Positions 2,414-38,255 are shown, counted from the stretch's first letter. The stretch is 64,000 nucleotides of DNA from an uncultured Christensenella sp. (GCA_964346355.1 CAYFUH010000004.1:2769-66768); one strand, 5' to 3'. Numbers and translations are program-made. Notes: a model not told the origin generated them from the letters alone.

Positions 2414-2419
2414 GTAAGC

Positions 2420-3418
2420 TTACTCCTTGGTTTTCGCTTCAATCAGGGCATTGATTTGCGGGCTTTGGTATACGCGCACATAATCCACCAGCATCTGCTG
2501 GGGCAGCACGCCCTCATCAATCCCCCGGGCGCCGCCCCAGTTACCGCCAAAGGCGATGTTGAGCAGCAGATGATGGCGCTGGTCAAAGGGCCATTCCTTA
2601 TAGGTGGGTTGGGACACATACTGGGTGGGCTGGTAGGTGTAATAGATGGTGTCATCCACCGCAATCTGGATTTTATCCGGCAGCCAGATGAGCGTATAGG
2701 TATGGAAATCGTCACTGATATCAGGCACCTGGGTGGTCGCCGTTTTCTGTGTGCCTATGGAGTGGTGGAAGGTTTGTGTGTGAACGGAGGCATGCAATCT
2801 GCCCTGGTCATAGCCCACGTGCTCCATGATGTCAATCTCGCCGGAGGCGGGCCAGGAGCCATAGACCCAGTCCGTGGGCAGCATCCAGATGGCGGGCCAG
2901 GTGCCCAGCCCCCTCGGGATTTTGGCCCTGATCTCAAACTTGCCGTATAGCCAGTCGCCCTTGTTGCGGGTGACCAGGCGGGTGGAGGTATACTCCCGGT
3001 TGCCCTTGCTTTCCTTGCGGGCTTCAATGATAAGCAGGCCGTCTTTGACGTCCACGTTCTCGCCCCGGGTGTAATACTGCAGCTCGTTGTTGCCCCAGCC
3101 GTGGCCGCCTACGTCATAGTCCCATTTATCCGGGTTGGGCGCACCGTTTATATCAAACTCATCCGACCAGACCAGCTCATAGGTGAGCGCGTCCTCGTCA
3201 TACTCAAAACCGATGGCCTTGATGTGATCGGGGGAGATTTCTGCAATCGTATCCGGGTCTACATAGGCGCCGGAGACCTCTGTCCCTGTGCGCAGACTGC
3301 CTGGATCAAAACCGCCGTGTGTCATGGAGTCCTCCTCGTTGTCTTGGGTTTTTGCCGCCAGCGCGGAAATGTTTATGCAAAGCAAGATTGCCAAAATAAC
3401 TGTTAGGAATGAACGCAT
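2420..3418 (-). CDS. Secreted GH16 endo-beta-1,3(-1,4)-glucanase (laminarinase-like)
   Basis: ORF 2420..3484 trimmed to ATG 3418 (AAAGGAG RBS). Signal peptide MRSFLTVILAILLCINISALAA. GH16 catalytic motif EIDIME (SGEIDIMEHVG), plus WPAIWMLP and FGGNWGG. Confidence 0.9.
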   Translation of the reverse strand: MRSFLTVILAILLCINISALAAKTQDNEEDSMTHGGFDPGSLRTGTEVSGAYVDPDTIAEISPDHIKAIGFEYDEDALTYELVWSDEFDINGAPNPDKWDYDVGGHGWGNNELQYYTRGENVDVKDGLLIIEARKESKGNREYTSTRLVTRNKGDWLYGKFEIRAKIPRGLGTWPAIWMLPTDWVYGSWPASGEIDIMEHVGYDQGRLHASVHTQTFHHSIGTQKTATTQVPDISDDFHTYTLIWLPDKIQIAVDDTIYYTYQPTQYVSQPTYKEWPFDQRHHLLLNIAFGGNWGGARGIDEGVLPQQMLVDYVRVYQSPQINALIEAKTKE

Positions 3419-3428
3419 ACAAACTCCT

Positions 3429-4349
3429 TTATTCGCCGGTGATGCCGGTGTTTTCGATGCCCTGGATAAACTGTTTTTGCACAACCAGATACAAAAGGAT
3501 CAAGGGCAGGATGGAGATCAGGGTGGCCGCCATTTTGTACGCCTCGTTTAACCGGAAGGCGCTGCCGGCGGAGGAGACCAGGCTTTCAAACTGCTGGTCG
3601 AACAGGTTGAGTTTGGAAGGCAGCAATTCAATCGTGCCCGCAACCAGGGTGCCGGTGACATAGGTCTCGTTCCAGTTCCACACAAAGGAGAACAAGAAGA
3701 CCACCAGCACTGTGGTAAGCGACAGGCGCACCACCACATGGTAAAACACCTGAATCGGGCTGGCGCCGTCAATCATCGCGGCCTCGTCCAGCACGCGCGG
3801 AATCATGTTGAAGAAATTGTTGAAGATCAAAATCAACACGGTGGAATACACCCCCTGGCCCATCAGCGCCATGGCCACCTGGGGCAGCGCCGTGCCGATC
3901 ATCTTGATGCCGGTGGTCTCCTGGAAGGTGATGAACATCATCAGCCTGGGCACCATGAGGACAGGCAGGGGCACGATAAAGGCCAGCAAAATCATCATGA
4001 ACCAGAAGCGCTTGAACTTAAACTCGTACCGGGAGAGGGCGTAGCCGGTCAGCGCGGATACGATGGTCTGCGCCCCGGCTAAGAGGGCGGAAAACCAAAG
4101 GGAATTGACCAGGGATTTTTGCAAATTCAGCACCCGCGCCGCGATGCGCAGATTTTCTGTTGAGGAGGCGCGCGGCAGCCATTCCACCGCCGGGTCAATC
4201 ACGTCTGCCGCGCTCATGAAGGTTTTGGAGATGATGCGGAAGACCGGCTCCATATACACAAAACTGACGCAAATCAGGATAAAGTAGATAACCAGGTTGC
4301 CCGCTTTGTGGCCGCTGTCTTTAAACAATCTGGCTCTGAATTTTTTCAT
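3429..4349 (-). CDS. Carbohydrate ABC transporter permease (CUT1, MalG/LplC-like)
   Basis: ORF 3429..4607 trimmed to ATG 4349 (MKKFRARLF...), which forms an ATGA overlap with the upstream stop. Multi-TM protein with an EAA-type loop, LDEAAMIDGASPIQVFYHVVVRL. Confidence 0.88.
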   Translation of the reverse strand: MKKFRARLFKDSGHKAGNLVIYFILICVSFVYMEPVFRIISKTFMSAADVIDPAVEWLPRASSTENLRIAARVLNLQKSLVNSLWFSALLAGAQTIVSALTGYALSRYEFKFKRFWFMMILLAFIVPLPVLMVPRLMMFITFQETTGIKMIGTALPQVAMALMGQGVYSTVLILIFNNFFNMIPRVLDEAAMIDGASPIQVFYHVVVRLSLTTVLVVFLFSFVWNWNETYVTGTLVAGTIELLPSKLNLFDQQFESLVSSAGSAFRLNEAYKMAATLISILPLILLYLVVQKQFIQGIENTGITGE

Positions 4350-5242
4350 GGCAGCGGCACCTCCTTGTCCCTGGGCGCGCGGAAGATGAGGAAGGCGATA
4401 CCGATCATTAACAGGACCACCAGGCTGTAAATCCAGGCGTAGGTCGCGGCGTAGCCCAGGCCGTTGCTCATGTTGGCGGTCGCGGTGCGGATGAGCGTGT
4501 ACACCGTGTTGATGTTGTAGGTGGATAGCTGCGCAATGGCGAAGATGGCGCTGATGAGGGCGATGGGCCGAATCTGCGGCATGGTAATCTTCCATAAAAT
4601 CTGCCACTCATTGGCCGAGTCGATGCGCGCGGCTTCATACATGCTGGGGTTGATTTTTTGCATGCCGTTGATGAAGAGCACAATGGGGATGCCCGTAAAC
4701 CAGAGGATGGTGGACAGCTGCCGGAACACCCCCGAGAGCATGTTGGAAAAGGCCGGGGAATAGCTTTCCAGGATGTTGAACAAAAAGAGGTTGGTATACT
4801 CATCCGGCATCGCGACACCGTTGATGATCGTCTGGGAATCCAGAATCTGCCACATCACGGGGCCGGACATAATGATGACGGGCAAGAAGAAGATGGTGCG
4901 GAAGAAGGCCTTGCCCCGCTTGATGCGGTTGAGAAAATAGGCAACCACAAAGGAGACCACCACAATCATGAAGGTGTAGGGCACAATCATCATCACAAAT
5001 TCGCCCAAAGCGGGCACGAACTCCACGTTCTTGAAAAAGGCGGTGATGTAGTTTTCCCAGCCAGTGAAGGTGATCTCATACCCCCTTATGGTGGAGTTGA
5101 CGGAGGTAAAGCTAAGCCCAATCGTCGCCACGAAGGGAAAGAGGGTAAAGAGGAGAAAACCAATGATCCAGGGCGCCATGAACAGATAGCCCATCCGGTT
5201 TTGGCGGCGGGCGAAGGCTGCGTCCTTTTTGCGGTTCTTCAC
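4346..5242 (-). CDS. Carbohydrate ABC transporter permease (CUT1, MalF/LplB-like)
   Basis: 298 aa. GTG start overlaps the stop of the upstream gene (GTGA), with AAGGAGG upstream. Six predicted TM segments and EAA loop YEAARIDSANEWQILWKITMPQIRP. Confidence 0.88.
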   Translation of the reverse strand: MKNRKKDAAFARRQNRMGYLFMAPWIIGFLLFTLFPFVATIGLSFTSVNSTIRGYEITFTGWENYITAFFKNVEFVPALGEFVMMIVPYTFMIVVVSFVVAYFLNRIKRGKAFFRTIFFLPVIIMSGPVMWQILDSQTIINGVAMPDEYTNLFLFNILESYSPAFSNMLSGVFRQLSTILWFTGIPIVLFINGMQKINPSMYEAARIDSANEWQILWKITMPQIRPIALISAIFAIAQLSTYNINTVYTLIRTATANMSNGLGYAATYAWIYSLVVLLMIGIAFLIFRAPRDKEVPLP

Positions 5243-7620
5243 TCACTCACCTCCTTGATGACCACAGCGGACTGCGGCGGGATTTTCTGGTTTTCAAACT
5301 GCTGGGTTTGCGGGGTGTAGTTGATGACAATGCGCGCGGTGTCGGTATCCCTTTTATACTCGTTCACCACAACGCCGCTGGCCGGCACCTTGCGCGCAAG
5401 CCACTCAAAGCCCTGCACCTGTGACAAGGCGCCGTTGACCTGCTTGTAAATCCGGGTGATGAGGTCACGATACTGCTCAAACTCGGTGGAATAAAGCCCC
5501 GAAGACAGCGTTTCTGACAGCAGGTGCGCCGGCTGCTTGGACAGGATAAAAGCGGGGCTTATGTTGTAGTCGATCATGCGCAGGATATCCTCCTGCGTGT
5601 AGAAGGAGAAATTGCTGTAAGGCCCGTACACCTCCATGGTGCCGTGCAGCACCATTTGCAAAAAGGGCACCTCATCCGTCTCAAACACATATTGGGATCC
5701 CCCCGCCGGCGCCTGCAAAAAGCGCGTGGTAGCCTGCCATAAATAGACGTTAGGTGCCTCCAGATTCAGGCGCAGCGTGTCAGAAAGCGCCTGCATGACC
5801 TCGCGGTAGGCTGTCATGGACTGGCCCAGGGTGAGGGTAACGCCCTGGCGGTCGTAGCTGGACAGCAACTGGTTGCTGATGCCGGCGATGGTGAGTGACT
5901 GGGAAAAAGGCGCGGCGCGGCGGGCGATCTCCCTGAGCCAATCAGCGGCGATGGTGGGCAGCGCGAAGGCAAAATCGGTAACCGGCGCTGCCGGGAACAA
6001 ATCCTCCCGGTTGTTGCTGTTGTACCAGGTGTTGATATGCTTGGCTGCCGTGCCCAGGTAGGACGTCATGCGCGGGTTGATGGTGGCGTATTCCCGGGCC
6101 AGGCTGATGTCAATGCCTTGGGCCGCGTAGTGTTCAAACAGCTCTTTGAAATCCTGCTCCCGTCCGATGCCGCGGTGAAAGCGCCAGCTGTCCGGCCGCG
6201 CCAGCGTTTCAGCGCCCGCCTGCCAGCCGATGAGTCCGGCATTGATATTGGTGATGCCCAGGCCCATCACCTCGTCCAAGATCTCCCTGACATCCCCCAC
6301 CGTGGTGGTAACCACCTGCTCATGCCCGATGAGGCTTTTTTTCATGTCCGACAGGATAAAGTCCAGCCGCAGGGGCAGATCCCCTTCCTGTTTGGAACGC
6401 TTGTTGAGCACGCCTTTTTGAATCAGATGGCTGCGGTAAGCCTGGGCCATGCCGCTGTAATCAGCGCTGGGGCTGCCGTCGCTGCCATCACCATGCAGGA
6501 ACAGATAGGTCATCTTCACATCGTACTGGAAGAGGTCCTCCGCCTTTGTGAAGTAGCCGCTGCCCTTTCTGTTGTAGACCTTGTAATACTCCACGTTGTA
6601 CTCAAAGCGCGGGTAACAGAAATTGTACTTGAGGCGCAGGTTTTCCTCCGGCCGCATGATGATGTCCAGGTACTCCGCACCCTGCTCGGCATAGGCTAAA
6701 AAGGCAGCCTGCTGGTTGCCGTGGGCGATGCCAAAGACGGGCATGGTGGGGTTTTTGGTAGCCAGGGCGTCCGACTCACGGGTGCTGAAATAGGTCTGGG
6801 TAGACAGATCCGGGCCAAAGACATCGCCGATGTACTCCATAAAGGGCACCGTGTTGTCCTGGAAGCGAATCAGCGTGCCGGAGCCGTCGGGCACCAGGGC
6901 ATAGCCCGGCACGGCATACTTGGCGCGGGTATCGCCATACTCGCCGGTAGCAGGGTCATAAAACTCCGCCTCGCCGCCGCTGGCACCCAAAAAGGGCGTA
7001 ATCCACAGCGCGGTGAAGACGCTTTTGCCGCTGCCGGTGATGTCCGCGATGGGTACTTCATACTGCAGGCCTTTCTCAAGCAGGGTGACATAGACCTTGA
7101 TCTGAAGGTCGATCTCTTTGAAGTCTACCGCCAGCACAAATTGGTTATCCGTGCCGGGCACAGCTTCTAGCTGGCTGTCCACATTTTTTTCCGCGGCGCT
7201 GCCCAGGTAGAAGATCTTGCCGTCGCGGTACTCGATGGTGATGAGGGAATTGGCCACGCCGATGTAGGTGGCGTTCATACTTTTTTCAATGGGCTCTGCC
7301 GCGATCAGCTTTTCCTCATCTGTTTTGGCCTGCTTGAGTGCATCCTTAATCTGCTTGGAAAAGCCAATGTCCGCGCCTGTTTTCCATACATAGCCGTTGG
7401 CCTTGTCCAAGACGGCCAGGATGTCCCTGTCCTCCCGCCAGTAATAAACAGCGCTGTTTGTTTCATATAGTAGCGTGTAGGCGTCCAAATTGGGCTGCTC
7501 CATCTTCACCAGCGCAGGCGCGGGCTTGGTGTCACGCTGGGTGGGCACATACACCTCTTCCATGCCTGCATCAGAAAAAAGCAAGAGGAGCAGGAGCAAA
7601 AATACAATCATTTTACGCAT
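5239..7620 (-). CDS. Secreted or membrane-anchored 793-aa protein of unknown function (possibly the family annotated DUF5696)
   Basis: ORF 5239..7644 trimmed to ATG 7620. N-terminal hydrophobic anchor MRKMIVFLLLLLLLF. I could recognise no catalytic motif. The C-terminal half contains LDFILSDM...GWQAGAE...VPFLQMVLHGTMEVYGP. The 8-nt overlap with the upstream gene and the GTGA overlap downstream argue for real, coupled translation. Confidence 0.7.
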   Translation of the reverse strand: MRKMIVFLLLLLLLFSDAGMEEVYVPTQRDTKPAPALVKMEQPNLDAYTLLYETNSAVYYWREDRDILAVLDKANGYVWKTGADIGFSKQIKDALKQAKTDEEKLIAAEPIEKSMNATYIGVANSLITIEYRDGKIFYLGSAAEKNVDSQLEAVPGTDNQFVLAVDFKEIDLQIKVYVTLLEKGLQYEVPIADITGSGKSVFTALWITPFLGASGGEAEFYDPATGEYGDTRAKYAVPGYALVPDGSGTLIRFQDNTVPFMEYIGDVFGPDLSTQTYFSTRESDALATKNPTMPVFGIAHGNQQAAFLAYAEQGAEYLDIIMRPEENLRLKYNFCYPRFEYNVEYYKVYNRKGSGYFTKAEDLFQYDVKMTYLFLHGDGSDGSPSADYSGMAQAYRSHLIQKGVLNKRSKQEGDLPLRLDFILSDMKKSLIGHEQVVTTTVGDVREILDEVMGLGITNINAGLIGWQAGAETLARPDSWRFHRGIGREQDFKELFEHYAAQGIDISLAREYATINPRMTSYLGTAAKHINTWYNSNNREDLFPAAPVTDFAFALPTIAADWLREIARRAAPFSQSLTIAGISNQLLSSYDRQGVTLTLGQSMTAYREVMQALSDTLRLNLEAPNVYLWQATTRFLQAPAGGSQYVFETDEVPFLQMVLHGTMEVYGPYSNFSFYTQEDILRMIDYNISPAFILSKQPAHLLSETLSSGLYSTEFEQYRDLITRIYKQVNGALSQVQGFEWLARKVPASGVVVNEYKRDTDTARIVINYTPQTQQFENQKIPPQSAVVIKEVSE

Positions 7621-9634
7621 AGATATTGCGAAGCACCTCCTCATAGATGGTGCGCAGGAACTCCAGCAGCTGCTCGCCCATAATCAGCACAATCAGCACG
7701 ATGATGACCGCGATGATCATGAAAACCAGGGTGAGCACAAAGCAGCGGATGGTTTCCCGGAAAGTGTAGTCATGCACATTCTGCAGGGCCAAAAACAGCG
7801 TGATCAGCGTCCAGACAACCCCGGCTAACAGGATAATGGACAGGATGAAGGACTCGCTGTAGGTGAGCGTGTAACTCAGCCCCAAAATGAGCAGGAAAGC
7901 GCCCATCACCGGCATGAGTGAATAGGCGGGGATCATGTAGCACTGCTTTAAATCCCCGTCCCCGTCGTTGATGGAGGTGACCAGGTAGTTGCACAGGATG
8001 AACAGGCCGATGAACAGGAAATAGCCCGTCACCAGGGCGGTGATGTCCATGTCCTCCACCTGCACAAACTGGTAGATGAAGCCCTTGCTGGTTTGGTAGA
8101 GCATGAAAATTACGAAATACAGACCGTAGAGGATGGTGGCGCCCAGGACGCTGCCCTCGCGCTTCCTGCGCACCTCATAAAAGGCATCCACGGGATGGCG
8201 CGGTGTGACAAAGGCAAAGAGGACATCCTTGATGACAGGCGTTTTTCGCAGTGCGCGCCAGCCGCGGCTGGTGAGGCTGCGCATGCCGCGCTTTTTATAG
8301 TACCGCTTGAGGAAGAAGTTGATGAGAACCAGGGCCACTGCGCCCATCGCAAACGGCGGCAGCCAGCGCTGGATAAAGGTGTTGCGCAGCTCCCAGAAAG
8401 CCTCTGAATACATGGCGCGGTTGCCCGCCACGCGGAAGTGGCCGATGGACGCCTCATAGTCTTCGTTATGGAAGTGCGCCTTGGCGATTCCGTTGTGCGC
8501 CAATACAGACATCTGGTTGAGCCTGAGCACCCGGTTCCATTGGCGCAGCGATGCCTGGTACTCCCCTTTTTCATACAGGCCCATCGCGTCATAGACCGTG
8601 TTGGCGTAATCCGTGGGCACAAAGGACTGCACATAGCCCTTCTCGCTGTCCAGCGCCCAGATGATGCCCTGTTTGTCCACCGCCAAAGCGGGCAAGCGGG
8701 AAAACAGGCCCGCCACATCCAGGTTGGAAACATTGGAGCCGAAGTTGAAGATCAATTCCCCGGCGGGCGAATAAATCAGGATGTAGCCGGACTGGTCAGC
8801 GGCATAGATGATGCCGCGCGCGTCCACCCAGACATCGCTTAAGGCTTCGGTGCTGATGACCCGGTCGATGAACATGTTGGCGCCGTCCGTCCGGTGCTTT
8901 TTAAGGGCATTGTAGCGGATGGACATGGTGGTGGTATAGGTGATCCCGGCCGGGTCCACAAACACGTTGGAGAAGGTGATGGGCACGCTGTCCACCAGGT
9001 TGGCCAATTGCTCGCGCGTGAAGATCAGGCGCTGCAGGGCTTGGGAGAAGGTGAGCCGCGTCTGGTTGACGGTGAAATAGCCCAGGAACTCCCCCGCTTT
9101 GCCCAACTGGATGACGCCGTGGTAGACGCCCTCCCCCACCAAATAGAGGTTGCCGCCCGCGTCCACCGCAACCTTCATGGGCTCATAACGGATGTCCGAA
9201 AAGACGGGTGAGGCGGGTTTTTCATACGCGCGGATCAGGGTCTGCGCGGCATCAAACTGGAACACCTTGCGCGCGCCCGGGTCCGCCACATACAGCTGTC
9301 CCTCCCTGGTGACATAGATGCCGGTAGGGCTTGAAAAACCAGGATAGGCCAGCTCGTTTTTTATCTGGCCGCGGGCAGTGTCGTACAGCAGCACGCGCTT
9401 GTTGCCGCTGTCGGCGATGTACAGGGTGCCCGCTTCATCAATAAACAGGTCCGCGGGCTTATTAAGCCCCAGCGTGGTGATGGTTTTGTCCGGCAAATAG
9501 GCGTCCTGCGTGCGCACAAAGCGGTATTTCTGATCCAGCGTGTAGGTGTAGCTGGTGGCTTTGTTGGCATAAGCGGTGAGCGGCAAAAAGAGACTTGCCA
9601 GCAACAGGAGAATGATGCGTGTCCGTGTTCTCAT
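7613..9634 (-). CDS. NHL-repeat beta-propeller / TPR / Yip1-domain integral membrane protein
   Basis: ORF 7613..9643 trimmed to ATG 9634 (GAGGTG RBS). Signal peptide MRTRTRIILLLLASLFLPLTAYA. NHL-like repeats include LYIADSGNKRVLLYD, LYVADPGARKVFQFD, IIYAADQSGYILIYS and IIWALDSEKGYVQSF. A TPR-like stretch (GLYEKGEYQASLRQWNRVLRL) is followed by a multi-TM Yip1-like C-terminus. Confidence 0.75.
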   Translation of the reverse strand: MRTRTRIILLLLASLFLPLTAYANKATSYTYTLDQKYRFVRTQDAYLPDKTITTLGLNKPADLFIDEAGTLYIADSGNKRVLLYDTARGQIKNELAYPGFSSPTGIYVTREGQLYVADPGARKVFQFDAAQTLIRAYEKPASPVFSDIRYEPMKVAVDAGGNLYLVGEGVYHGVIQLGKAGEFLGYFTVNQTRLTFSQALQRLIFTREQLANLVDSVPITFSNVFVDPAGITYTTTMSIRYNALKKHRTDGANMFIDRVISTEALSDVWVDARGIIYAADQSGYILIYSPAGELIFNFGSNVSNLDVAGLFSRLPALAVDKQGIIWALDSEKGYVQSFVPTDYANTVYDAMGLYEKGEYQASLRQWNRVLRLNQMSVLAHNGIAKAHFHNEDYEASIGHFRVAGNRAMYSEAFWELRNTFIQRWLPPFAMGAVALVLINFFLKRYYKKRGMRSLTSRGWRALRKTPVIKDVLFAFVTPRHPVDAFYEVRRKREGSVLGATILYGLYFVIFMLYQTSKGFIYQFVQVEDMDITALVTGYFLFIGLFILCNYLVTSINDGDGDLKQCYMIPAYSLMPVMGAFLLILGLSYTLTYSESFILSIILLAGVVWTLITLFLALQNVHDYTFRETIRCFVLTLVFMIIAVIIVLIVLIMGEQLLEFLRTIYEEVLRNIYA

Positions 9635-9644
9635 GCCCGCCACC

Positions 9645-10541
9645 TCACTTGATGCCTGAGTGGCTCATCGTGTTCATGACCTGGGACTGCATGAAGATGA
9701 AAATGATGAGGTTGGGCAAAAAGAGGATGAGGGAAGCAGCAGCCGTCATGCCGGCGGCGGACACCGTGTTGTTGGTGGAGATGGCGTTTAAGTAAAAGGC
9801 CAGCGTGCGCAGGGCGTCATCGGTGATGAAGTTGTTGGAGGCCTCCACCGTGCCCCACACCAACTGGAAGGACAGCACTGCAGCTGTTGCAAGTGCTGGC
9901 CGTGTCAGCGGGATGATGACCCGGCGGATGATGGTTACATCCCCCGCACCGTCTATCACCGCGGCCTCTATCAAAGCATCCGGGATTTGATCCGTAAACT
10001 GTTTGATTAAAAACAGGACGACCGGCATCGCCACCAGGGGGAGAATATGCGCGAACAAGGTGTTGAGCATGCCGGAGTTGACGATGACGATATAGCGCGG
10101 CACCGCCACCGCGGTGGGCACAAACATCAGGGCCAGCTGGTTGATGGAGAACAGGCGCTCCTTGAGGCGGAAACGCTTCTTGGACAAAGCGTAAGCCCCG
10201 GTCACGGAGATGGCCAGGTTGAGGAGCACCGTCAAAATGGTAATCACCACGGAGTTGAGCAAATAGCGCGACATGGGGACCCCTGTGGTGGAGGACAAGC
10301 GAAACAGCGCGCGGAAATTATTGAGGGTGAACTCGCTGGCGAAGATACGCGGCGGGAAGGCGTGCAACTCACCCAGGGGCATGAAAGCGCGGTTGACAAT
10401 CATCAACACAGGAATCACCATGAAGGCCGCCAGCGGCAGCAGCACCAGGTAAAACTTGATCTGGCTGGCGGAAAAACGGCTGGGGTTGATGCGGGAGCCG
10501 GAGTAGGCGTTGCGACGGCGCCTTTTGGCGGGCTGACTCAT
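9645..10541 (-). CDS. Carbohydrate ABC transporter permease (MalG/LplC-like)
   Basis: 298 aa. ATGA overlap with the upstream stop, GGAGGAG RBS. EAA loop [26 protein letters not shown]. Six TM segments. Confidence 0.88.
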
Positions 10542-11473
10542 ACGATCTCCTCCTTCTCGCCAAAGAAGCGGTAGGCCAGTTTGTTAAACAGATAGACAAC
10601 CAACAGCAGCACAACCGACAGCGCCGCGGCGTAGCCCATCTCATAGCGGATGAAGCCATAGTCATCGATGTGGTTGGTGATCAACTGCCCCGCGTACTGC
10701 GGTGTGGGGTTTGCGCCCGCCAAGGTGACACCAATCCAGCCCATGTTGAAGGCGTTGACAATGGCCATGACCGCGCCAAAGAGCATCTGCGGCTTCATGG
10801 ACGGAATGGTGATATAGATAATCTCCTGAAAACGGTTGCGCAGCCCGTCCACATAGGCGGCCTCGTACAGTTCTTCATTGACATTCAAGATGCCTGAGAT
10901 CATCGCCAAAAAGCCGATTCCCATCGCCGACCACAGGGACACGATGATCATGATCAGCATGAAATAATCCTGGGTCAAAAGGAACTGGATGGGTTGGTCC
11001 GTGAGGCCCAGTTCCATGAGCAGGAAGTTGGCGATGCCAGCCTGATCGCCCGAGAAAATGGCACGCCAGACCACGCCGATGAATACGCTGCCCAGCATGG
11101 AGGGCGTGTAGATGCACAGCGCCAGGATGGTGCGCGGCACGCGCTGCAACTGGGTGAGCATCCACGCCACCAAAAAGGAGAGGACATAGCCGCCCGGACC
11201 TACCACCAGGGCGTATAAAAAGGTGTTGGGCAGGACGTTTTTGAGGAAGACCGTATCCTGGGTGAAGATGGACACGTAGTTGAGCAGCCCTGTAAACACC
11301 GGGCGGTTGATCACATCAAAGAAGGTAAAGCTGAGCACAATGGCCACCACCACAGGCACCAGGATAAACATGGTGAAGGGAATGGCATAGGGCAAAAGCA
11401 GCAGGCCCGCGCGCAGGCCTTCACGCTTTTTTCGCGGCTTTGGTTTTTTGCCGGATACGCTGACGCTGCTCAT
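10538..11473 (-). CDS. Carbohydrate ABC transporter permease (MalF/LplB-like)
   Basis: 311 aa. ATGA overlap with the upstream stop. EAA loop [27 protein letters not shown]. Multi-TM. Confidence 0.88.
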
Positions 11474-14406
11474 CTCATCCCTCCTTCCGACAGATCCATC
11501 TGCTCCTTGATCCAGTCATAATCCCGGATCACATAGGGCTTAAGCAAACGGCCGTCCTGGTCATAAAAGCCCAGCTCCGTCATCTTCTTTCTGATTTCGC
11601 GGTTGATTAAGACCACCTTCTCGTCCACCGCTACCTGGGCGGATACGCCCTTTGTGACCATGGCGTTCCAGATGTCGGAGATGGAGCGCTCTAGGATGTA
11701 CTGCCCGGGCGTGCGCGGGACATCCCGCAGCCAAGGGGTGCTGTCCAAAATAATGTCCAAATCCGCCCGGTCTATCGGCGCGTCTTTTAAGGCCTCCACG
11801 TTGGAAGGCAGCCACATGAAGGCATCGCCATAGGTAGAGCGCAGCAGGAAGGTGTAGTTGACCTGCGTTTCCTTGGACAGCCACCACTTGAGGAAGGCCC
11901 AAGCCTGATCCTTCATCTGCGTGTCCTTAAACACAATGCCGCCCTGACCGTTGGCAATAAACCAGCGGGAGACGCTTCCGTCCTCCTGCACGGTGCCGGG
12001 GTAGGGCGCCATAGCCCACTGGCCTTCCAATTCCGGCGCGCCGTTTTTCAGCAAGATATAGGTGCCCGAGTCCAGGATGCCCACAGGCTGCACCGCGTAC
12101 CGGAAGGCGTCAAAGAAGCTGGATACCTGGATGTCCAGGGAATAGGCGATGAACAGGTTGCCCAGCGCCTGGATGCCGGCGATGGCCTCCGGCTGGTGGA
12201 TGGCGGTGCGGTAGCCATCCGGAGTGTATAATGTGCCGCCGTGCTGGAAGATGAGCGGCGTTGTCTGATAAAACCACTTGTAGCCCGTGCCCTGGGCGAT
12301 GTTGTGGAAGAAGTTCATTCCGTAGCGCTGCAGTTCCGGCAAAAGGGCTGTCACCTCATCCCAGGTCGCGGGCACCTGCATGCCAAAGTTTTCAAAGATG
12401 TCGCGGCGGTAGACCAGGCAGGCAAAATCCAGCGTCTCCGGAATGGCATACACACCCTCGTTGAATAAATAAGGAACAAAGGTGCCCGGCGGCATCTGCC
12501 CTGCCACCTGCCAGAAATCCGAGAACTGGCTTAAATCAAGCAGTGCGCCGCGGGAAGCCAGATCAAAAGGCATGTGGGATGCCAAGCCCAGCGCCACATC
12601 CGGCGTGGTGTTAGCGGAAGCCGACATGGTGAGTTTGCCGGGGTCGGTGAGCGCGGACAGCTTCACCTTGATGCCTGTTTTTGCGGTGAACTCGGTATCC
12701 ACCATCTTTTGCAGCAAATCCACATGTGTGAGCGCGCGGTTCACCCAGACGGTCAGCACCTCGCCATCGCCCGCGGTCTGGCGGTATTTGTCGGTGGTAA
12801 AGGTGTGGTAAAGGGTGGAAAACCAGTTGCCCAGGCTGCGCAGCGCGCTCGCGCCGGACTGGGGCACCTCGCCCTCCCCCGTCACATACACCATGTCCAG
12901 GGAGAAGGCGTCGTTGGTGAGCTGCGTCGCAAAGCGGCTGAGGGAGACGATGATGGAGTTGTCCGGCCCGGTCATCTGCTGGGTGTACAGGGAAATCTCA
13001 TCCGGGTAGCGCTTCATGGCTTCAATCAAACCAAGCGCCTTATCGATCTCCGCAAACATCGCGCTGCCTGTGCCGCGCTCGCTATAGTCCTGGGTGAGTG
13101 TCTTGATGTGGTTGAGAAGGACGTCATAGGCATCCAGGTAATCGGCGATGTGCGGCAAATAGCGCGTCATCTTCCAGGTGCGGTTTTTATCTCGCTGGGA
13201 GCCCGCCAATTCGGTCACCTGCAAAGAAAAGCGCATCACATGGGCGGATACCAGCCGGGCATAGCGCCATGCCTGCATGACCGGCGCCATCTCCATGCGC
13301 AGGCTGAGGGTGTGCGTGCCCGCCTCCAGATAAAACAAGAAAGGCGCGCCATCTTTGCCGTGCAGCGTCTCCATCGCCCAGTTCCCGTTGGTGACGGGGA
13401 AGGAATAGCTTCCGCACTCTAAAAAGGGCAGGCTGCCATCAATCAGGATGCTGTGGAAGGCGGCGAACTCCGGCTTGTCGTTGCGGTAGTGGAGGGCAAT
13501 TTGATATAAGCCTGCTGTTTTGACCTCAAAGGAATAGGTGACCTGCGTCCCGTCCTTGCCCCAGGACAGGGCGTTAAGCAATTTTTTGCTGCTGTCATGC
13601 GGGGTGAGCGCCGGGTTGTTGACGCTTTCAAAGATGGCTTCCGCGTTGTTCTTTTCCAGATAACGCACCGCGTTAAGGGCAATTGTGCCTTCCCCCATCA
13701 TCTGGTGCTGATGCTGCGCTTGATAGGCTGCGTAATCAGGCAGGGTGCCCTCAGGCGCCATGGCGCGCAGCGCGCCCAGCATCAGGCCATCGCCGGAGCG
13801 GTTGGTGAGGGTGATGAGGTTGTCACCTGAGGGCAGGTAAAACAGCAGCGGCTGGGCAGTAGAGCGCAGCTTGCTGTTGAGGGGCTGGCTGCGCCAGCGA
13901 TCCACCCTGGATTGACGCGGGGCGGATTCATCCCCATAGCTGTCCTTGGGGAAATCCTCCTGCGCGCTTTGCCAGTAAAGGGGCAGGGCGAGGCTGTCCA
14001 TCTCCGCATAATCCTGAACATCATTGACCTTGATGGACAGGATGAAGTCCGACATGGTGCTGAGAGTGGGCAAATAGTCAAGGCTGAGGGTGTACAGCCC
14101 GGCTGTTTCCACCGCCAGACGGTAGGTAGCCGTTTGCTGGTAGTTGAGCAAAATGGTGTCCCGGTCCGCCGTGCCATCAAGGGGCAGCGCGCGCGCATCC
14201 CCAGTCCCTGGGGGCACATCCAGACCTGACAGGAAATCCAGATAGGGCGTTTGCTCACCGGTCATCTCACCCGCCAGCAGCTGCCAGGCTTTGGTAACCT
14301 CCTGCTCGTCGCTGGCCTGCACACGCAGCCCCTGTTTTGGGGGCAAAAAAATGAGGGCAAGCAGAATGACTCCGACCACGACCCAGGCTCCCCATTTTTT
14401 GATCAT
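11470..14406 (-). CDS. Giant (978 aa) membrane-anchored extracellular solute-binding protein with a duplicated N-terminal beta-sandwich-like module
   Basis: ATG 14406 with GAGGGA RBS. N-terminal TM helix [17 protein letters not shown]. Two related segments ([22 protein letters not shown] / [23 protein letters not shown]). The C-terminal ~430 aa look like a family-1 SBP ([11 protein letters not shown]..., [19 protein letters not shown]). Confidence 0.8.
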
Positions 14407-14429
14407 CCCAATTCCCTCACGGCTATCGC

Positions 14430-14460
14430 CCCAGCCGGGGGGTTAAACCCCCCGGCCGGG
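14430..14460 (-). promoter_or_regulatory. Strong GC hairpin between the two SBP genes (intercistronic stabiliser or partial terminator)
   Basis: CCCAGCCGGGGGG-TTAAA-CCCCCCGGCCGGG: 9 bp, one mismatch, then 3 bp. On the minus strand it lies just downstream of the SBP stop (14473). No U-tract follows on the minus strand. Confidence 0.55.
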
Positions 14461-14472
14461 AAGGTATGTGAT

Positions 14473-16116
14473 TTACTTAAAAGCGTCCTCGGTGAAACCG
14501 TAGTACTTGATTAAGCCATCGCGCAGGCCTTTTTCCGCCTTCACGAAGCGCGCGTTGATGGCTTCGTTCCAGTCGGACAGCTTGGCTTTGACGGTATCCA
14601 GCCAGTTGGCGTCGGTGCTGCCAACACCCAGCACATCGAAGTTGGTGGCGTTCATCCACTCGTACAGGCAAGGGGTCTGGGTGCCGTCCTCGTAGATGTA
14701 GAACAGGTAGGTCTTGTCGGAGATATCCCAGAACTGTCCCTTCTCCCACAACTCCAGCACGTACTGGAAGCCGGGCATCAGGTCTTTATCCAGATAGCGC
14801 GCGTGCTCCTTGGTGCTGCCCCAGATGGCCATCTGCTCACTGAAGGCTTCGCCAGTCACCAGCGGGAAGGAGTCATTCAAGGAACTGCGCAGGGCGCCGT
14901 TATCAGAGTAGATAGCATCCGCCCGGGCCTGCATGGCCTCCGTCGCACCGCACCAGTAGGAGCCAAAGGCGTAGGCCAGTTTGAACTGCTCAATCTCCTT
15001 GTCACTCCACTCGGGGTTGCCATCGTCCATGGCGTAGTTGTGAATGGCCATCGGGTCAATAACGATGCCGACGGTGTTCTCCTGATATTCGGTCGCGGGG
15101 CGCGGGTAGATGTCCCAATCATTGGATTCCACCGCGTTCACCTTCCAGGTGCCGTCCTCATTTTTGCCGCCGCTTGCAGCGCCCAACATCCACGGGTCGC
15201 CGTCATAGCTGAGGATGTAGTTGCGGCAGAAGAAGCGGAAGCCCCACCACCAGCCGTCATCCATGACTTCCTGCGGCACGTTCTGCAGGCCAAACTGCGC
15301 CCAGATCGCGCTCTTAGCCCACTCGGGCACATAGGCCAAGGTCTTCGCGACTTCCTCGCTGTTGAGGTCTACATAGTCGCCCTCGCCGGAATAGGTGTTC
15401 AGTTTGTAGTTGATGGCGGTTGTGCCAGTCGCGATGAAGGACAGCGGGGTATCCATCGCGCCCCAGAAGGTTTTGTTGTCAGCGCTGGTGACAAACTCGG
15501 TATACTCGTCAATATCCCAGTCCGGATCCGGCACATCGATGTTGTTGTTCTCGGCCAGTTCCTTGTTGACATACACGCCCCAGGGCTGCATAAACTGCGG
15601 CAAGCCAGCCTGGAAGCCGTAGTAGTTCATCAGGGACATGACGGCGGGGTTGAAGGATTTGTACAGCGGGTCATCCTTGAAGGCGGACAGGTCCGCCACC
15701 AGGCCGCGGCTGACATCGCCGGACAGGTCGGTGGAGGCGTAGATGTCCGGGTACTTGCCGTGCTGCGCCTTGTAGTTCTCCATCTCCTGATACCAGGAGG
15801 TGTCGTTGCCATTGGGGTCATCCGCCTTGGCCCAAAGGTTGATCTTCACGTTGGGATACAGCTCACGGAAGGCCTTGGCCATGCCGTGGACAGCCGCCAC
15901 GTTCTGGCTGGTGATGTCCTCCGGCTTCCAGTCCTTGGCGCCGATGTCCTCATAGAAGATGCTGTCGCCGGACCACACCATGATGTCAATGCTGCCGGCC
16001 GTTTCCGGGTCCAAGGTTTTGTAGAAGGGGGCCGCGTCCTCCGCGAGCGCCGGCATCAGGCCAAGGCCAAGGCACAGCGCCAGGAGAAGGCTCAGAATTT
16101 TCCGGGTTGTGAACAT
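14473..16116 (-). CDS. Extracellular solute-binding protein, large CUT1/LplA-like type (547 aa)
   Basis: ORF 14473..16674 trimmed to ATG 16116 (GGAGG 7 nt upstream). Signal peptide MFTTRKILSLLLALCLGLGLMPALA. First gene of the minus-strand locus, preceded by a 283-nt AT-richer control region. Confidence 0.88.
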   Translation of the reverse strand: MFTTRKILSLLLALCLGLGLMPALAEDAAPFYKTLDPETAGSIDIMVWSGDSIFYEDIGAKDWKPEDITSQNVAAVHGMAKAFRELYPNVKINLWAKADDPNGNDTSWYQEMENYKAQHGKYPDIYASTDLSGDVSRGLVADLSAFKDDPLYKSFNPAVMSLMNYYGFQAGLPQFMQPWGVYVNKELAENNNIDVPDPDWDIDEYTEFVTSADNKTFWGAMDTPLSFIATGTTAINYKLNTYSGEGDYVDLNSEEVAKTLAYVPEWAKSAIWAQFGLQNVPQEVMDDGWWWGFRFFCRNYILSYDGDPWMLGAASGGKNEDGTWKVNAVESNDWDIYPRPATEYQENTVGIVIDPMAIHNYAMDDGNPEWSDKEIEQFKLAYAFGSYWCGATEAMQARADAIYSDNGALRSSLNDSFPLVTGEAFSEQMAIWGSTKEHARYLDKDLMPGFQYVLELWEKGQFWDISDKTYLFYIYEDGTQTPCLYEWMNATNFDVLGVGSTDANWLDTVKAKLSDWNEAINARFVKAEKGLRDGLIKYYGFTEDAFK

Positions 16117-16333
16117 TGGGTTACCTCCATTTTTATTTGATTCAAAGAGCACCTGAGCATATGATACCATCCTTTCATGTGTTTTTCGATCGTTTTCGCG
16201 AATTGTTTTTGACATCTTTTCTGCCCGGCAACATACGAAAAGGTTTAAGTGTTTTCTTGACATACGATTGATAAATGACAAAAAGGATGGTTTCCGGCAG
16301 AGCGAAAAACAATATAAATACAATCCGCAAAAT

Positions 16334-16361
16334 TTGTCGGTTTTTCGTTTTTGTGTATACT
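16334..16361 (+). promoter_or_regulatory. Candidate sigma-A promoter for the Dak2-DegV gene
   Basis: TTGTCG (16334-16339), 16-nt spacer, TATACT (16356-16361), about 38 nt upstream of ATG 16400. Confidence 0.4.
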
Positions 16362-16399
16362 TTTTATAGAAGCATGATTGATGTATTGAAGGGGACGAC

Positions 16400-18169
16400 A
16401 TGAGTGAAGCAAGTGTGATACATCCAGACAGCCTGTATGCCGCGCTGGTTTCCGGCGCCAGCCGGATAGAAGCCAACCAGGACGTACTAAACCAGGCCAA
16501 CGGGTTTCCGGTTCCCGACCGGGATACCGGCAGCAACCTGGCGTATTTGTTTGGCGCGATCAGGCGGCAGATGGGCCAGGGCACTAGCGTGGCTGTGCTG
16601 CTGGGCAGTTTGAGCGATATTGCCCTCAGATGGGCGCGCGGCAACAGCGGTGCCATCTTTTCACAGTATTTCAACGGCTTGTACCAGGCAGCCAGGCAAA
16701 TGAACGAAGCCCTTCCCCTGCACGCGCTGGCCGTCTTGTTTCAAACAGGCTATGAGTACGCGATCAAAGCAGTGCAATCCCCCAAGGAAGGCACCATCTT
16801 AACTGCGATGCGCAGCTTTAGCGAAGCCTTCGCCGATGCCCTTGCAAAAAAGCAGGAGACAGAGGCCTTGACCGCCTCGCTTTCAACCCTGCGTGTCGCA
16901 GTGGACGGCACCAAAAACACCCTGCCCCAGCAAAAAGCGCTGCAAATGCCGGACGCGGGCGCGATGGCATTTTTGTACTTTGTGGAAGGCTTTGTGGATT
17001 CCATCGTAAGCGGCGCACCGGTGCCAGTACAAGACAGCGCTGCCATTGATATCACGCAGGAGATAAGCCATATTCACAGCGATGAGGTGCTGACCCACCG
17101 CTACTGCACCGAGGTGCTGCTGGAAAAAGCCGGCACAGCGCCCCTGCAGACAAAAGTGCATGAAGTGCTGTTTGGTCTGGGCGACTCCCAGGTGGTATCT
17201 GAAACCGACAGCCTGCTGCGCGCGCATGTGCACAGCAACCACCCGGATCAGGTTGTGGACGCGCTGTCCGCCTTTGGACGCATGGTTGAAGTCAAGGCGG
17301 ATGATATGACCTGCCAGCAGGCCCTCTCCCGCGATTATCCGGGGCAAACGGCGCTTGTGATCGATTCCATCGCGGATGTGCCCGACAGCCTGCTGTCTGA
17401 GCACGTGTACCGTCTTCCCCTGAACCTGTTGATGGACGGCGTTTCCTATCAGGACAAACGCACCATGTCAGCCAGGCGGGTCAAGGAAAACCGCGCGCGC
17501 ATCAGCAGCTCGCAGCTAAACCGCAGCGAGGTAAGCGCCTTTTTGGATCCCATCCTCTGCCGTTATGACAGGGTGCTCATCCTGTGCGTATCCTCCAGGA
17601 TGTCGGGCTTGTATGACCGTTTTATGGAATACAAAAGGGCGCACCCTGACCGGGACATCACGCTGGTGGACAGCCGGCTCAACTCCGGCGCCCAGGGGCT
17701 GCTGACCCTTTATGCCAGCAAGATGCAAAAAGAAGGTATGGCGCCGCAGGACATCGCAGCCAGGCTGGAAGCCCTGCGCTTGCGCACCAAAATCTACGTC
17801 AGTGTGCCTGATCTTTCAGCCATGGTATCCTCCGGCCGTTTAAACCGGCGAATCGGCAAACTGCTGATGGCACTGCGCTTTTTGCCGCTTATCACCATCA
17901 ACCCAAAAGGCGAGGGCAGCATTACCGGCCTCACCTTCTCCCAAAAAGCCAACCAGCAGTTGTTGCTGAACAAATTGAAGAAAGCCCAGGTGGCGGAATA
18001 CGCCCTGGTGTACGCGGGGGACCCCGCGCGGGCACGCCAGGCCGCGACAGCCATCCGCGACGCCTTGGGCCAGGAGCCTGCCTATATCAGCGATATCTCA
18101 AGCGTCGTATCCCTCTTCGCGGGCGAGGGCGCCTATGCCGTTGCCTATATTGAAAAGGAGCCGTCATGA
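16400..18169 (+). CDS. Dak2 (DhaL/FakA-like) domain fused to a DegV fatty-acid-binding domain
   Basis: 589 aa. The N-terminus has Dak2-type motifs ([24 protein letters not shown]). The middle has YloV-like HRYCTEVLL. The C-terminal ~280 aa have a DegV signature ([14 protein letters not shown]..., SSRMSGLYD). Confidence 0.8.
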
Positions 18170-20365: not shown

Positions 20366-21562
20366 ATGAATCAGAATGCGGAGCCAGGCCAATCAGCCAG
20401 GCTGTTGTTTTATGTCACCGCGCTGTTTTGGTGCGCGCAGTACAGCTACACCCAATATATCAACCCGGAATTGATTCGGATGGGCGCCAGCGGCCTGTTC
20501 ATGGGCATGGTGGCGGGCGCTTATGGCTTTACGCAGATGGTGCTGCGCATCCCGCTTGGCATCATGGCCGACCGCATCGGGCGGCAAAAGCCGTTTGTGG
20601 TCATCGGCTGCCTGCTGTCCGCACTCGCCTGCGCCGGGTTTTTGCTGATGTACACCCCCTCTGGCTTTTTGATTTCCAGGGGTTTGGCCGGCGTTGGTTC
20701 CGCGGCCTGGGTGTCCTTTACGGTGCTGTACAGCGCTTATTTCCCGCACCATGAAGGCCCGCGGCGCATCTCCCACTTAAACGCAGCCAATATGTCAGGG
20801 CGCTTGGTGGGTTTCTTCCTGGTTCTCTTCATCATCCCCCGCCTGGGCGTTAAATCCTCCTTCAGCTTCAGCTTAGCGGCCGCCCTGCTGGCCTTCTTCC
20901 TCAGCACGACGCTCAAAGAGCCGCGCCATGTCAAACAGGGCATCCGCTTAAAGGATATTGTGCTGGTGGCCCGGGATAAATACCTGATCGCCTGCTCCAT
21001 TGTGGGCATTTTGACCCAGGTGGTGGCCTTCAACACCTATTACGGCTTCACCGTCAACGTGGCCAAGCGCCTGGGCGCGGCGGACGCGATGCTCACCTGG
21101 CTTAACATCGCCCTTTTAATTCCCACCATTTTGATGAACCTGCTGCTGACCAAAACCCTGCTTGCCCGCTTTAGCGCGCGCGTGCTGGTCTGCATAGGCT
21201 TCCTGCTGGGCGCAGTCTACTGCGTCCTGGTGCCGATGGCACAAAACATGACGCAGCTGCTGCTCCTTCAAATCCTGGGCGGCAGCTCCAGCACCCTGAC
21301 CTTTGGCGTGCTCATTGGCCAAAGCGTGCGGGACATCCGCCAGGAGATGCGCGCGGTGGCCATGGGCTTTTACCAGGCCGTGTACGGCATCGGCATGACG
21401 CTGGGCCCGGTGTTGATGGGCGTCTTGATTGACACAAGCGGCCTTGACAACGCGTTTTTCGCGGTGGCGGGTTTCGCGCTCCTCTCCGGTGTCCTGTCCT
21501 ACTACCTGCTCAACATTCCGCCCCAAAACCAACCAAACTTGAAAGAAGAGGCATATGAGTAA
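20366..21562 (+). CDS. MFS transporter
   Basis: ORF 20345.. trimmed to ATG 20366 (GGAGGGGG RBS). About 12 TM segments. MFS loop motif GIMADRIGRQKP. Confidence 0.85.
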   Translation: MNQNAEPGQSARLLFYVTALFWCAQYSYTQYINPELIRMGASGLFMGMVAGAYGFTQMVLRIPLGIMADRIGRQKPFVVIGCLLSALACAGFLLMYTPSGFLISRGLAGVGSAAWVSFTVLYSAYFPHHEGPRRISHLNAANMSGRLVGFFLVLFIIPRLGVKSSFSFSLAAALLAFFLSTTLKEPRHVKQGIRLKDIVLVARDKYLIACSIVGILTQVVAFNTYYGFTVNVAKRLGAADAMLTWLNIALLIPTILMNLLLTKTLLARFSARVLVCIGFLLGAVYCVLVPMAQNMTQLLLLQILGGSSSTLTFGVLIGQSVRDIRQEMRAVAMGFYQAVYGIGMTLGPVLMGVLIDTSGLDNAFFAVAGFALLSGVLSYYLLNIPPQNQPNLKEEAYE

Positions 21563-22727: not shown

Positions 22728-22797
22728 GCCCGCTTCCTTGCCCCAACAGGGTTTCCTCTGTATAATACGCGTATAGCAAGAAAGGGCGTAGACTGCG

Positions 22798-26387: not shown

Positions 26388-26951
26388 ATGATTCAAATCT
26401 CGAAGGAACATATTCTCATCAGAAGCGCCGTGCTTGCTGACGCGCCCTTGCTGAACGCATGGTGGAATCACGGCGCCGTCATGGCCCATGCCGGCTTTCC
26501 CAAGGGCCTGGGTCAAAGCATGGAAGAAACCCGGCGGCAGATTGCCGCCCATGAAGGCAAATTAAGCCAGCTGTGCATGATTCTCATTGATGGAAAGCCT
26601 GTTGGGGAAGCCAGCTTCCGCATCGGGCAGAATGAAGCCGAGACCGGCTTTAAAATTTGCGACAGCAGCTACCAGAACCGGGGCTATGGCAAACAGATCA
26701 TCTGGATGGTGTTTGAGTATCTGTTTTTAGATGAAGCCCTGGGCAGCAAAATGCCCATCCACCGCATTTTTTGGGATACCAACCTGAACAACACCCGGGC
26801 CCAGCATGTTTACGAAGCCCTGGGCGCCACCAGATTGCAGGTTGTGAAGGACGCCTTTACTGACCAGCTGGGGGCATCCCAAAGCGCAGTAGAATACCAG
26901 CTGACCCGGGAAGACTTCCTGAAGCTTCAAGCGCAAAGGCAGACAGTTTAA
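26388..26951 (+). CDS. GNAT family N-acetyltransferase
   Basis: 187 aa. Acetyl-CoA site-like QNRGYGKQ. General GNAT layout. Confidence 0.8.
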
Positions 26952-26983
26952 CAACGACAGATATTTATAAAAAGGAGACCACC

Positions 26984-38216: not shown

Positions 38217-38255
38217 GCTGTCCTCCTGATCTGGTTGCATGGCATTGTAGAGTTT

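Follow-up and report, generated by a model that had tools for sequence, protein, structure and literature searches.

The left-hand end of a 64,000-nt stretch of DNA from an uncultured Christensenella sp. (GCA_964346355.1 CAYFUH010000004.1:2769-66768; hereafter, the window) carries ten tightly packed minus-strand genes, running from position 16116 to the left edge, that putatively encode a glycan-uptake system and its enzymes. In the direction of transcription, the block opens with a gene for a secreted, divergent family-1 solute-binding protein (SBP), designated SBP1 (14473-16116, 547 aa). An intercistronic, G+C-rich stem-loop lacking a U-run (14407-14472, core at about 14431-14459) separates it from the gene for a giant SBP (11470-14406, 978 aa), which combines a membrane helix, two sandwiches predicted to resemble carbohydrate-binding modules (CBMs) of the CBM6/35 type, a helical bundle, and an SBP domain. 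Two permeases of the BPD_transp_1 family come next, one MalF/UgpA-like (A1; 10538-11473, 311 aa) and the other MalG/UgpE-like (A2; 9645-10541, 298 aa). These are followed by a protein with Pfam NHL, TPR, and Yip1 matches (NHL/TPR/Yip1; 7613-9634, 673 aa), a full-length member of the DUF5696 family (PF18952, E 3e-132; 5239-7620, 793 aa), and a second pair of BPD_transp_1 permeases (B1, 4346-5242, 298 aa; B2, 3429-4349, 306 aa). The block closes with a GH16 gene (2420-3418, 332 aa), whose product shows a Pfam Glyco_hydro_16 domain, a signal peptide, and the motif EIDIME, and a GH161 gene matching PDB 9qqk/9h8v (1-2413), of which the window edge leaves 804 of about 1060 aa.

According to the open reading frame (ORF) coordinates, four junctions (11470-11473, 10538-10541, 5239-5242, and 4346-4349) are start/stop overlaps of 4 nt, and NHL/TPR/Yip1 and DUF5696 share 8 nt at 7613-7620; the remaining gaps measure 6-10 nt, with the exception of the 66-nt gap at 14407-14472 that holds the stem-loop. 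Local sequence backs the start codons of both the NHL/TPR/Yip1 and the DUF5696 genes, the former having GAGGTGG ahead of its ATG. An earlier reading of this DNA (the first-pass annotation) had described ten same-strand genes forming one tight unit, and its order, strand, and coordinates were reproduced by the ORF map. Its domain calls for the block likewise hold in Pfam, NCBIfam, and PDB sequence searches, which make two of them more precise: the phosphorylase-like gene encodes a GH161 beta-1,3-glucan phosphorylase, and the 793-aa protein is a full-length DUF5696 member. The 673-aa and 793-aa proteins indeed lie outside characterized families.

Loci related to the block were gathered in three sets, 168 in all. 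For the genome set, an alignment of NHL/TPR/Yip1 homologues was scanned on one genome per GTDB species, and the best 80 of 158 confirmed places were compared with the ten window proteins by tblastn. The metagenome set comprises the best 80 loci obtained with an alignment of 15 second-group DUF5696 members (median DUF5696 identity, 28%), and the third set consists of eight loci reached via giant-SBP homologues of 25-41% identity. Essentially every genome-set locus that is long enough preserves the whole ten-gene order on one strand, with identities down to 41-50%. The hosts include Christensenellales, Acetatifactor, Herbinix, Anaerocolumna, Anaerotaenia torta, Roseburia, Eubacterium album, E. 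segne, and Oscillospiraceae; the closest relative, L001 from a digester 'Clostridiales' metagenome-assembled genome, is about 95% identical. NHL/TPR/Yip1 adjoins DUF5696 in 73/73 genome loci and 54/54 metagenome loci, the two B permeases follow DUF5696 in 68/68 and 63/63, respectively, and the giant SBP, A1, and A2 lie upstream in 60/60 and 32/32. These counts take as positive L001 and L002, which were flagged by the script for a 4-nt gene overlap and in which tblastn shows NHL/TPR/Yip1 directly upstream of DUF5696. The eight giant-SBP-homologue loci keep the core order wherever the contig reaches. The order giant SBP, A1, A2, NHL/TPR/Yip1, DUF5696, B1, B2 therefore holds down to 25-30% identity, and its recurrence in every related locus examined places the arrangement far beyond chance. 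The first five of these genes, which the first-pass annotation had set apart as a cassette, recur in this order across Firmicutes loci and co-occur without exception among the loci that could be checked. A single kind of interruption of the core was seen, namely a gene for a 1649-aa secreted protein between NHL/TPR/Yip1 and DUF5696 (L092, 4983-9932; also in L091 and L093).

The enzymes that accompany this core vary. GH16 and GH161, with or without GH30 or GH3, are present in this window, L161, and L085, whereas L162 carries a GH2 mannosidase, two GH130 enzymes, a 2-epimerase, and a GH5 mannosidase, and L164 is flanked by GH38. The 88 flanking ORFs of distant metagenome loci include 17 with PF10091 (GH144-like), 7 GH31, 7 GH35, 6 GH3, 4 GH94, 3 GH13, 2 GH66, 2 GH65, and 2 GH2. 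Loci with GH94, PF10091, GH3, and GH35 probably serve beta-1,2-glucan, a reading that fits the action of GH35 on beta-1,2-glucosidic linkages in endo-beta-1,2-glucanase clusters, as described in PMC8861115. With the order constant and the enzymes variable, the conserved unit is the seven-gene core plus the small SBP that usually accompanies it, the enzymes being interchangeable. With high confidence, we regard the components of the uptake system as one conserved unit rather than as two importers that are neighbors by accident. The first-pass annotation had proposed a device for surface capture and processing of a beta-glucan; the predicted folds described below fit capture and processing, but the beta-glucan specificity falls away, as the core also stands beside beta-1,2-glucan, alpha-glucan, and mannan enzymes.

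For the block in this window, the flanking enzymes point to a particular polymer. The GH161 assignment follows from a match to PDB 9qqk/9h8v with E 7e-176 over residues 11-794, accompanied by a weaker match to the GH149 model; the protein has no signal peptide, and its full-length orthologue in L001 measures 1061 aa. GH16 membership is given by Pfam (E 9e-25) and NCBIfam matches, and both the ExDxxE motif (EIDIME) and a signal sequence can be read, so that the protein is, to judge from its sequence, a secreted endo-beta-1,3(-1,4)-glucanase. A beta-glucan logic of GH16, ATP-binding cassette (ABC) transporter, and phosphorylase has been published for Firmicutes, for example, for the Blautia producta MLG locus (PMC10318527), as have GH161 gene clusters with ABC permeases but without an ATPase (PMC6484121). 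The combination of GH161 with a secreted GH16 matches these precedents and indicates beta-1,3-glucan as the substrate. We therefore consider it very likely that the block is a beta-1,3-glucan (laminarin/curdlan-type) utilization operon, in which the secreted GH16 and the cytoplasmic GH161 bracket the uptake system.

Within the core, the giant SBP joins two kinds of protein. Pfam recognizes SBP_bac_1 only at residues 563-848 (E 1e-24), along with SBP_bac_8, inside an SBP domain that spans about 545-960. This C-terminal half is a normal family-1 SBP, as found in CUT1 importers, and is matched by many sugar SBPs in the PDB; the best PDB sequence match is Listeria innocua Lin1841 (5ysb), which has been assigned to a beta-1,2-glucan uptake system (PMC6484121). 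The model of the N-terminal half (pLDDT 88) comprises a membrane helix, beta-sandwiches at 70-216 and 241-371, and a helical bundle at 374-497. Foldseek superposes the sandwiches on the CBM6 structures 2cdp/2cdo (TM 0.60-0.67, rmsd 3.4-5 A) and also matches the N-half to the CBM35-bearing enzymes 4qaw, 3wnp, and 5x7o. The predicted N-half thus has the CBM6/CBM35 beta-sandwich fold. Pfam returned no CBM match for the window protein at the sequence level; its distant homologue P0445 has a precomputed CBM_35 Pfam hit. To our knowledge, a CBM fused to an ABC solute-binding protein has not been described, although no dedicated search was made. One further homologue, P0441 (927 aa, from a Logan assembly), joins giant-SBP residues 29-607 to DUF5696 residues 434-769 and skips both A permeases and NHL/TPR/Yip1; a deletion or a chimeric assembly is its likely origin, and it was not used as evidence of interaction.

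SBP1 has no Pfam or NCBIfam match and weakly matches family-1 SBPs in the PDB (22hh, E 9e-12). In distant loci it is mostly undetectable with tblastn, with matches in only 7; most of these loci nevertheless encode a lipoprotein of about 480-530 aa ahead of the giant SBP, and 16/19 positional equivalents of SBP1 are SBP_bac_1 proteins. The signal sequence of SBP1, MFTTRKILSLLLALCLGLGLMPALA followed by ED (16020-16116, minus strand), has no canonical lipobox, whereas the equivalents in its relatives carry clear lipoprotein signals (..SAC, ..TGC, ..SGC).

The four BPD_transp_1 permeases form two F-like/G-like pairs with EAA loops in all four sequences, the MalF/MalG-like arrangement of a CUT1 importer. 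B1 is only 27% identical to A1, and B2 only 24% to A2; the two pairs are thus not the outcome of a recent duplication. In distant loci, median identities to the window proteins are 61% for A1, 52% for A2, 38% for B2, 36% for B1, 33% for the giant SBP, 33% for NHL/TPR/Yip1, and 28% for DUF5696. A1 stands out as the best-conserved gene of the module: its identity is 48-76% (median, 61%) even in loci in which that of DUF5696 is about 28%. Partial correlations of pairwise divergence over 35 loci, which control for the mean of the other proteins, divide the components into SBP1, B1, B2, and DUF5696, on the one hand, and the giant SBP, NHL/TPR/Yip1, A1, and A2, on the other; the data points are non-independent and the signal is weak. 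This grouping agrees with gene adjacency and with the variant in L168, where the small SBP (21385-22976) sits after permease B2 instead of ahead of the giant SBP, a position that supports pairing the small SBP with permease pair B.

As the first-pass annotation had reported, motif scans of the block reveal neither an ABC ATPase nor a regulator. No Walker-A or LSGGQ motif occurs in 1-16400, so that the ATPase of a CUT1 importer is absent from the cluster, and in the window as a whole ABC ATPases are limited to a metal-type protein near 52986 and UvrA. The absence of a local ATPase does not argue against function: a shared ATPase encoded in trans is normal for such loci, as had been anticipated, and the usual state of affairs in Firmicutes. 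In GH161 clusters, too, the ATPase is usually not encoded (PMC6484121).

NHL/TPR/Yip1 belongs to the Yip1 family by its residues 479-644 (PF04893; E 5e-13, 49.8 bits against a cut-off of 28.6), and more than 1400 full-length homologues were found. Its topology, as read from the sequence, consists of a cleavable signal, an extracytoplasmic propeller and TPR region, one membrane helix, a basic cytoplasmic loop, and a five-helix Yip1 domain; the propeller region also gives a weak tachylectin-type Pfam match. In three loci (L164, 14731-16796; L166, 14799-16930; L167, 14766-16813), an NHL/TPR protein of about 475-500 aa and a Yip1 protein of 206-208 aa are encoded by separate adjacent genes. The two parts are fused in the window and split elsewhere, which implies a physical interaction of NHL/TPR with Yip1. 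In Bacillus, the Yip1-family protein YknW modulates the assembly of the YknXYZ ABC complex (PMC4887032). Literature searches for Yip1 in connection with SBPs, glycoside hydrolases, or NHL returned nothing relevant, leaving YknW as the sole functional precedent found.

The DUF5696 protein was modeled from a 30-sequence alignment (pLDDT 78, pTM 0.83). From the N to the C terminus, it is predicted to consist of a membrane helix or signal, a first beta-sandwich, a (beta/alpha)8 barrel, and a second beta-sandwich. The top Foldseek match is GH129 (8rzk, E 7e-26; NagBb 5wzr, 1e-21; TM on target of 0.68-0.71), followed by GH101, GH36, and GH31, with E values from 7e-26 to 1e-13 overall and identities of 9-12%. 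The model thus shares a glycosidase fold, but no Pfam GH family matches the protein even at E 10, and it joins no GH family by sequence. A GH17 transferase was discarded as a relative, the PDB match being at chance level (E 0.15) in single-sequence and 30-sequence profile searches. A profile search of 1.8 billion representatives places the DUF5696 family at 4172 clusters at 50% identity, which fall into an orthologue group and a second, large group whose members measure about 750 aa. Across 124 DUF5696 representatives, the only conserved acids are D245 (100%, in a VPDGSG motif), D271 (88%), and D649 (83%). The DUF5696 protein could act as an enzyme or, without catalysis, in glycan binding or as a scaffold.

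Expression signals at the block bear on whether its genes act together. The 66-nt spacer between the two SBP genes forms a perfect, G+C-rich stem-loop with a folding energy of -40.5 kcal/mol over 81 nt (z = -3.9), a stability reached by 0/200 shuffles; no U-run follows. In most related loci (L001-L068 were compared), a strong 10-17-bp perfect stem-loop lies 3' of the small SBP gene, often then followed by a U-run, and the structure is conserved across loci while its sequence is unrelated. A stem-loop after an SBP gene is the usual device for raising the SBP message over the permease messages, and the post-SBP1 stem-loop argues for differential expression within one unit rather than for independent operons. 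A consensus scan of the minus strand detected no convincing intergenic terminator. The candidate promoter region at 16161-16340 (minus strand) holds two weak sigma-70-like consensus matches, at 16340-16311 and, with an extended -10, at 16189-16161; promoter-like matches in this region equal the shuffle expectation in number and so constitute weak evidence. Short direct repeats spotted by eye at 16200-16300 (minus strand), namely TCGTATGT occurring twice and CGAAAAC-GAT-CGAAAAAC, could be regulator binding sites.

A Gram-positive polysaccharide utilization locus (PUL) combines enzyme, transporter, and regulator, and the last of these is missing here: motif scans found no regulator in or beside the block and no LacI-type helix-turn-helix in the window. 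The first-pass annotation had drawn attention to this gap, which is a trait of the present lineage; LacI-type genes lie within 10 kb in 34/80 related genome loci. They are mostly located directly after GH161, a position that in the window falls just past the left edge; L001, the closest relative at about 95% identity, has no regulator there or nearby. LacI, GntR, or AraC regulators are present in L161, L164, and L167.

Taken together, we favor, with moderate confidence, the interpretation that the core serves as a generic system for glycan capture at the cell surface and for dual import, here fitted for beta-1,3-glucan. According to this proposal, the secreted GH16 would cut the polymer outside the cell, and the membrane-tethered giant SBP would grip the glycan via its two modeled CBM6/35-like modules and pass chains to its own SBP domain and to permease pair A. 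The Yip1-anchored propeller/TPR protein could serve as an assembly scaffold, by analogy with YknW for YknXYZ, while the membrane-anchored DUF5696 protein, glycosidase-like in its predicted fold, may bind or trim the held chain. The small SBP and permease pair B would take in shorter products. Both translocons would be energized by an MsmX-type ATPase encoded elsewhere, and the cytoplasmic GH161 would convert the imported oligosaccharides to glucose-1-phosphate. The stem-loop after SBP1 would raise the SBP1 transcript over the downstream genes.

Several points weigh against this proposal. Simple substrate-specific import does not explain the conservation of pair A across different substrates. 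For DUF5696, no nucleophile/acid-base pair could be mapped from family-wide conservation among the 124 representatives, and D245 and D271 precede the predicted barrel in a low-confidence stretch; the model itself is moderate (pLDDT 78) and weak at the most conserved motif, residues 240-290. Literature searches on DUF5696 and PF18952 found no paper mentioning them. The scaffold role suggested for NHL/TPR/Yip1 derives from likeness to an exporter, and the assignment of long and short chains to the two importers is conjecture. Moreover, each scan contributed its 80 best loci, and more distant DUF5696 members could have other contexts.

The main rival explanation, to which we give limited credence, holds that the core comprises two ordinary, uncoupled importers, that DUF5696 is an extracellular glycosidase co-evolving with the locus, and that NHL/TPR/Yip1 is a lectin-like surface binder. 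It draws on the glycosidase-like fold of DUF5696, on the divergence of this protein at the pace of the substrate-specific parts (median, 28%) and its co-variation with SBP1 and pair B, and on the weak tachylectin-type match in the propeller region. Fixed gene order and translational coupling nonetheless persist over very deep divergence, and pair A is conserved far above expectation for substrate-specific importers. The glycosidase assignment, in turn, has to contend with the lack of a mappable catalytic pair and with the closest folds (GH129, GH101, GH36, and GH31), which are those of enzymes characterized with alpha-linked sugars, while many of the loci target beta-glucans.

ABC systems of the FtsEX and MacB types do work outside the membrane, and pair A, the giant SBP, and NHL/TPR/Yip1 might accordingly form a sensor or ATP-driven mechanotransducer rather than a sugar importer. 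The 48-76% conservation of pair A whatever the substrate, its co-variation with NHL/TPR/Yip1 and the giant SBP, and the absence of a regulator from the window would suit such a role. We consider it improbable, since pair A has an ordinary type-I importer fold with EAA loops, the giant SBP bears a normal family-1 SBP domain, NHL/TPR/Yip1 is devoid of a cytoplasmic output domain, and many related loci have conventional regulators of the LacI, AraC, or GntR type at their flanks. Least plausible of all is the insertion proposed in the first-pass annotation, in which a classical CUT1 operon (SBP, permease, permease, GH16, phosphorylase) is interrupted by a separable five-gene cassette: the gene order does look nested and the permease pairs are only 24-27% identical, but pair B accompanies the core in every locus examined, following DUF5696 in 131/131 checkable loci, some of which have unrelated enzyme sets with neither GH16 nor GH161, the cassette never occurs without pair B in the loci sampled, and the small SBP is found on either side of the core (L168).

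The capture and dual-import interpretation also has a bolder form, in which the core is a single physical machine, its two translocons coupled by the Yip1 scaffold and a glycosidase-like gate for 'selfish' long-chain uptake, as a Firmicute counterpart of SusC/D. This form is tentative and, in our estimation, rather unlikely; if it were true, the core would mark PULs of Clostridia whatever their substrate.

Sus-like PULs of Bacteroidota pair a SusC/SusD transport-and-binding core with enzymes that vary with the glycan and with adjoining surface glycan-binding proteins and an enzyme. The block resembles them in that a conserved transport-and-binding core marks loci with glycan-dependent enzymes, but it differs in relying on ABC importers instead of a TonB-dependent outer-membrane transporter, in its Firmicute hosts, and in the lack of any sequence or structural relation. 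Closer at hand are the described loci with GH16, a CUT1 transporter, and a phosphorylase (PMC10318527, PMC6484121), which share with the block the production of oligosaccharides by GH16, SBP-dependent import, a cytoplasmic phosphorylase, and an ATPase usually located elsewhere. Unlike those loci, the block has two SBPs, two permease pairs, a 978-aa CBM-like/SBP fusion, NHL/TPR/Yip1, and DUF5696. The GH161 cluster of Acholeplasma laidlawii contains two permeases and no SBP and lies adjacent to a GH94 cluster with an SBP and ABC transporter (PMC6484121); as a lead only, the two clusters may together represent the present module, annotated in two pieces. YknWXYZ offers a further parallel, as a Yip1-domain membrane protein is encoded with an ABC transporter and YknW is needed for assembly there (PMC4887032); in contrast, YknYZ is a MacB-type peptide-toxin exporter and YknW is without an NHL propeller or TPR, whereas the present system consists of type-I importers in catabolic loci. 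As for DUF5696, its predicted three-domain architecture is that of GH129, GH101, GH36, and GH31 enzymes (ZgGH129 8rzk, NagBb 5wzr, EngBF 2zxq), from which it departs in lacking a sequence match and in that its loci target alpha-linked as well as beta-linked glycans. Thus, loci combining GH16, ABC transporter, and phosphorylase (PMC10318527) and GH161 clusters without an ATPase (PMC6484121) were already known. The literature searched contains no description of the fixed dual-importer core with its CBM-SBP fusion, NHL/TPR/Yip1, and DUF5696.

Glycan uptake by gut and digester Firmicutes is commonly pictured as the work of a single SBP, a pair of permeases, and a small number of enzymes. The loci compared here point to a recurrent, much larger uptake core in Christensenellales, Lachnospiraceae, Eubacterium, Oscillospiraceae, and other lineages, with three conserved extracytoplasmic components that have never been studied. 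Should this core prove to be a functional unit, it would provide a sequence marker for Firmicute PULs, a candidate new glycosidase or glycan-binding family, and a tangible means of testing how long polysaccharide chains are dealt with by Gram-positive bacteria. Among the strains in culture, the core is carried by Anaerotaenia torta DSM 100431, Eubacterium album LFL-14, and E. segne BX4.

Some genes outside the block also merit mention. Its upstream neighbor encodes, on the plus strand (16400-18169), a 589-aa protein in which the N-terminal and middle domains of FakA (Dak2 and FakA-like_M) are fused to DegV (FakB-like); judged by this domain composition, the fusion would be a single-chain fatty-acid kinase. 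A second, separate DegV gene is located at 37356-38240. Further along, a gene of the GH130 (beta-mannoside phosphorylase) family (26984-27961, plus strand) lies remote from any transporter, flanked by genes for a GNAT acetyltransferase and an M19 membrane dipeptidase (region 26388-28864, plus strand).

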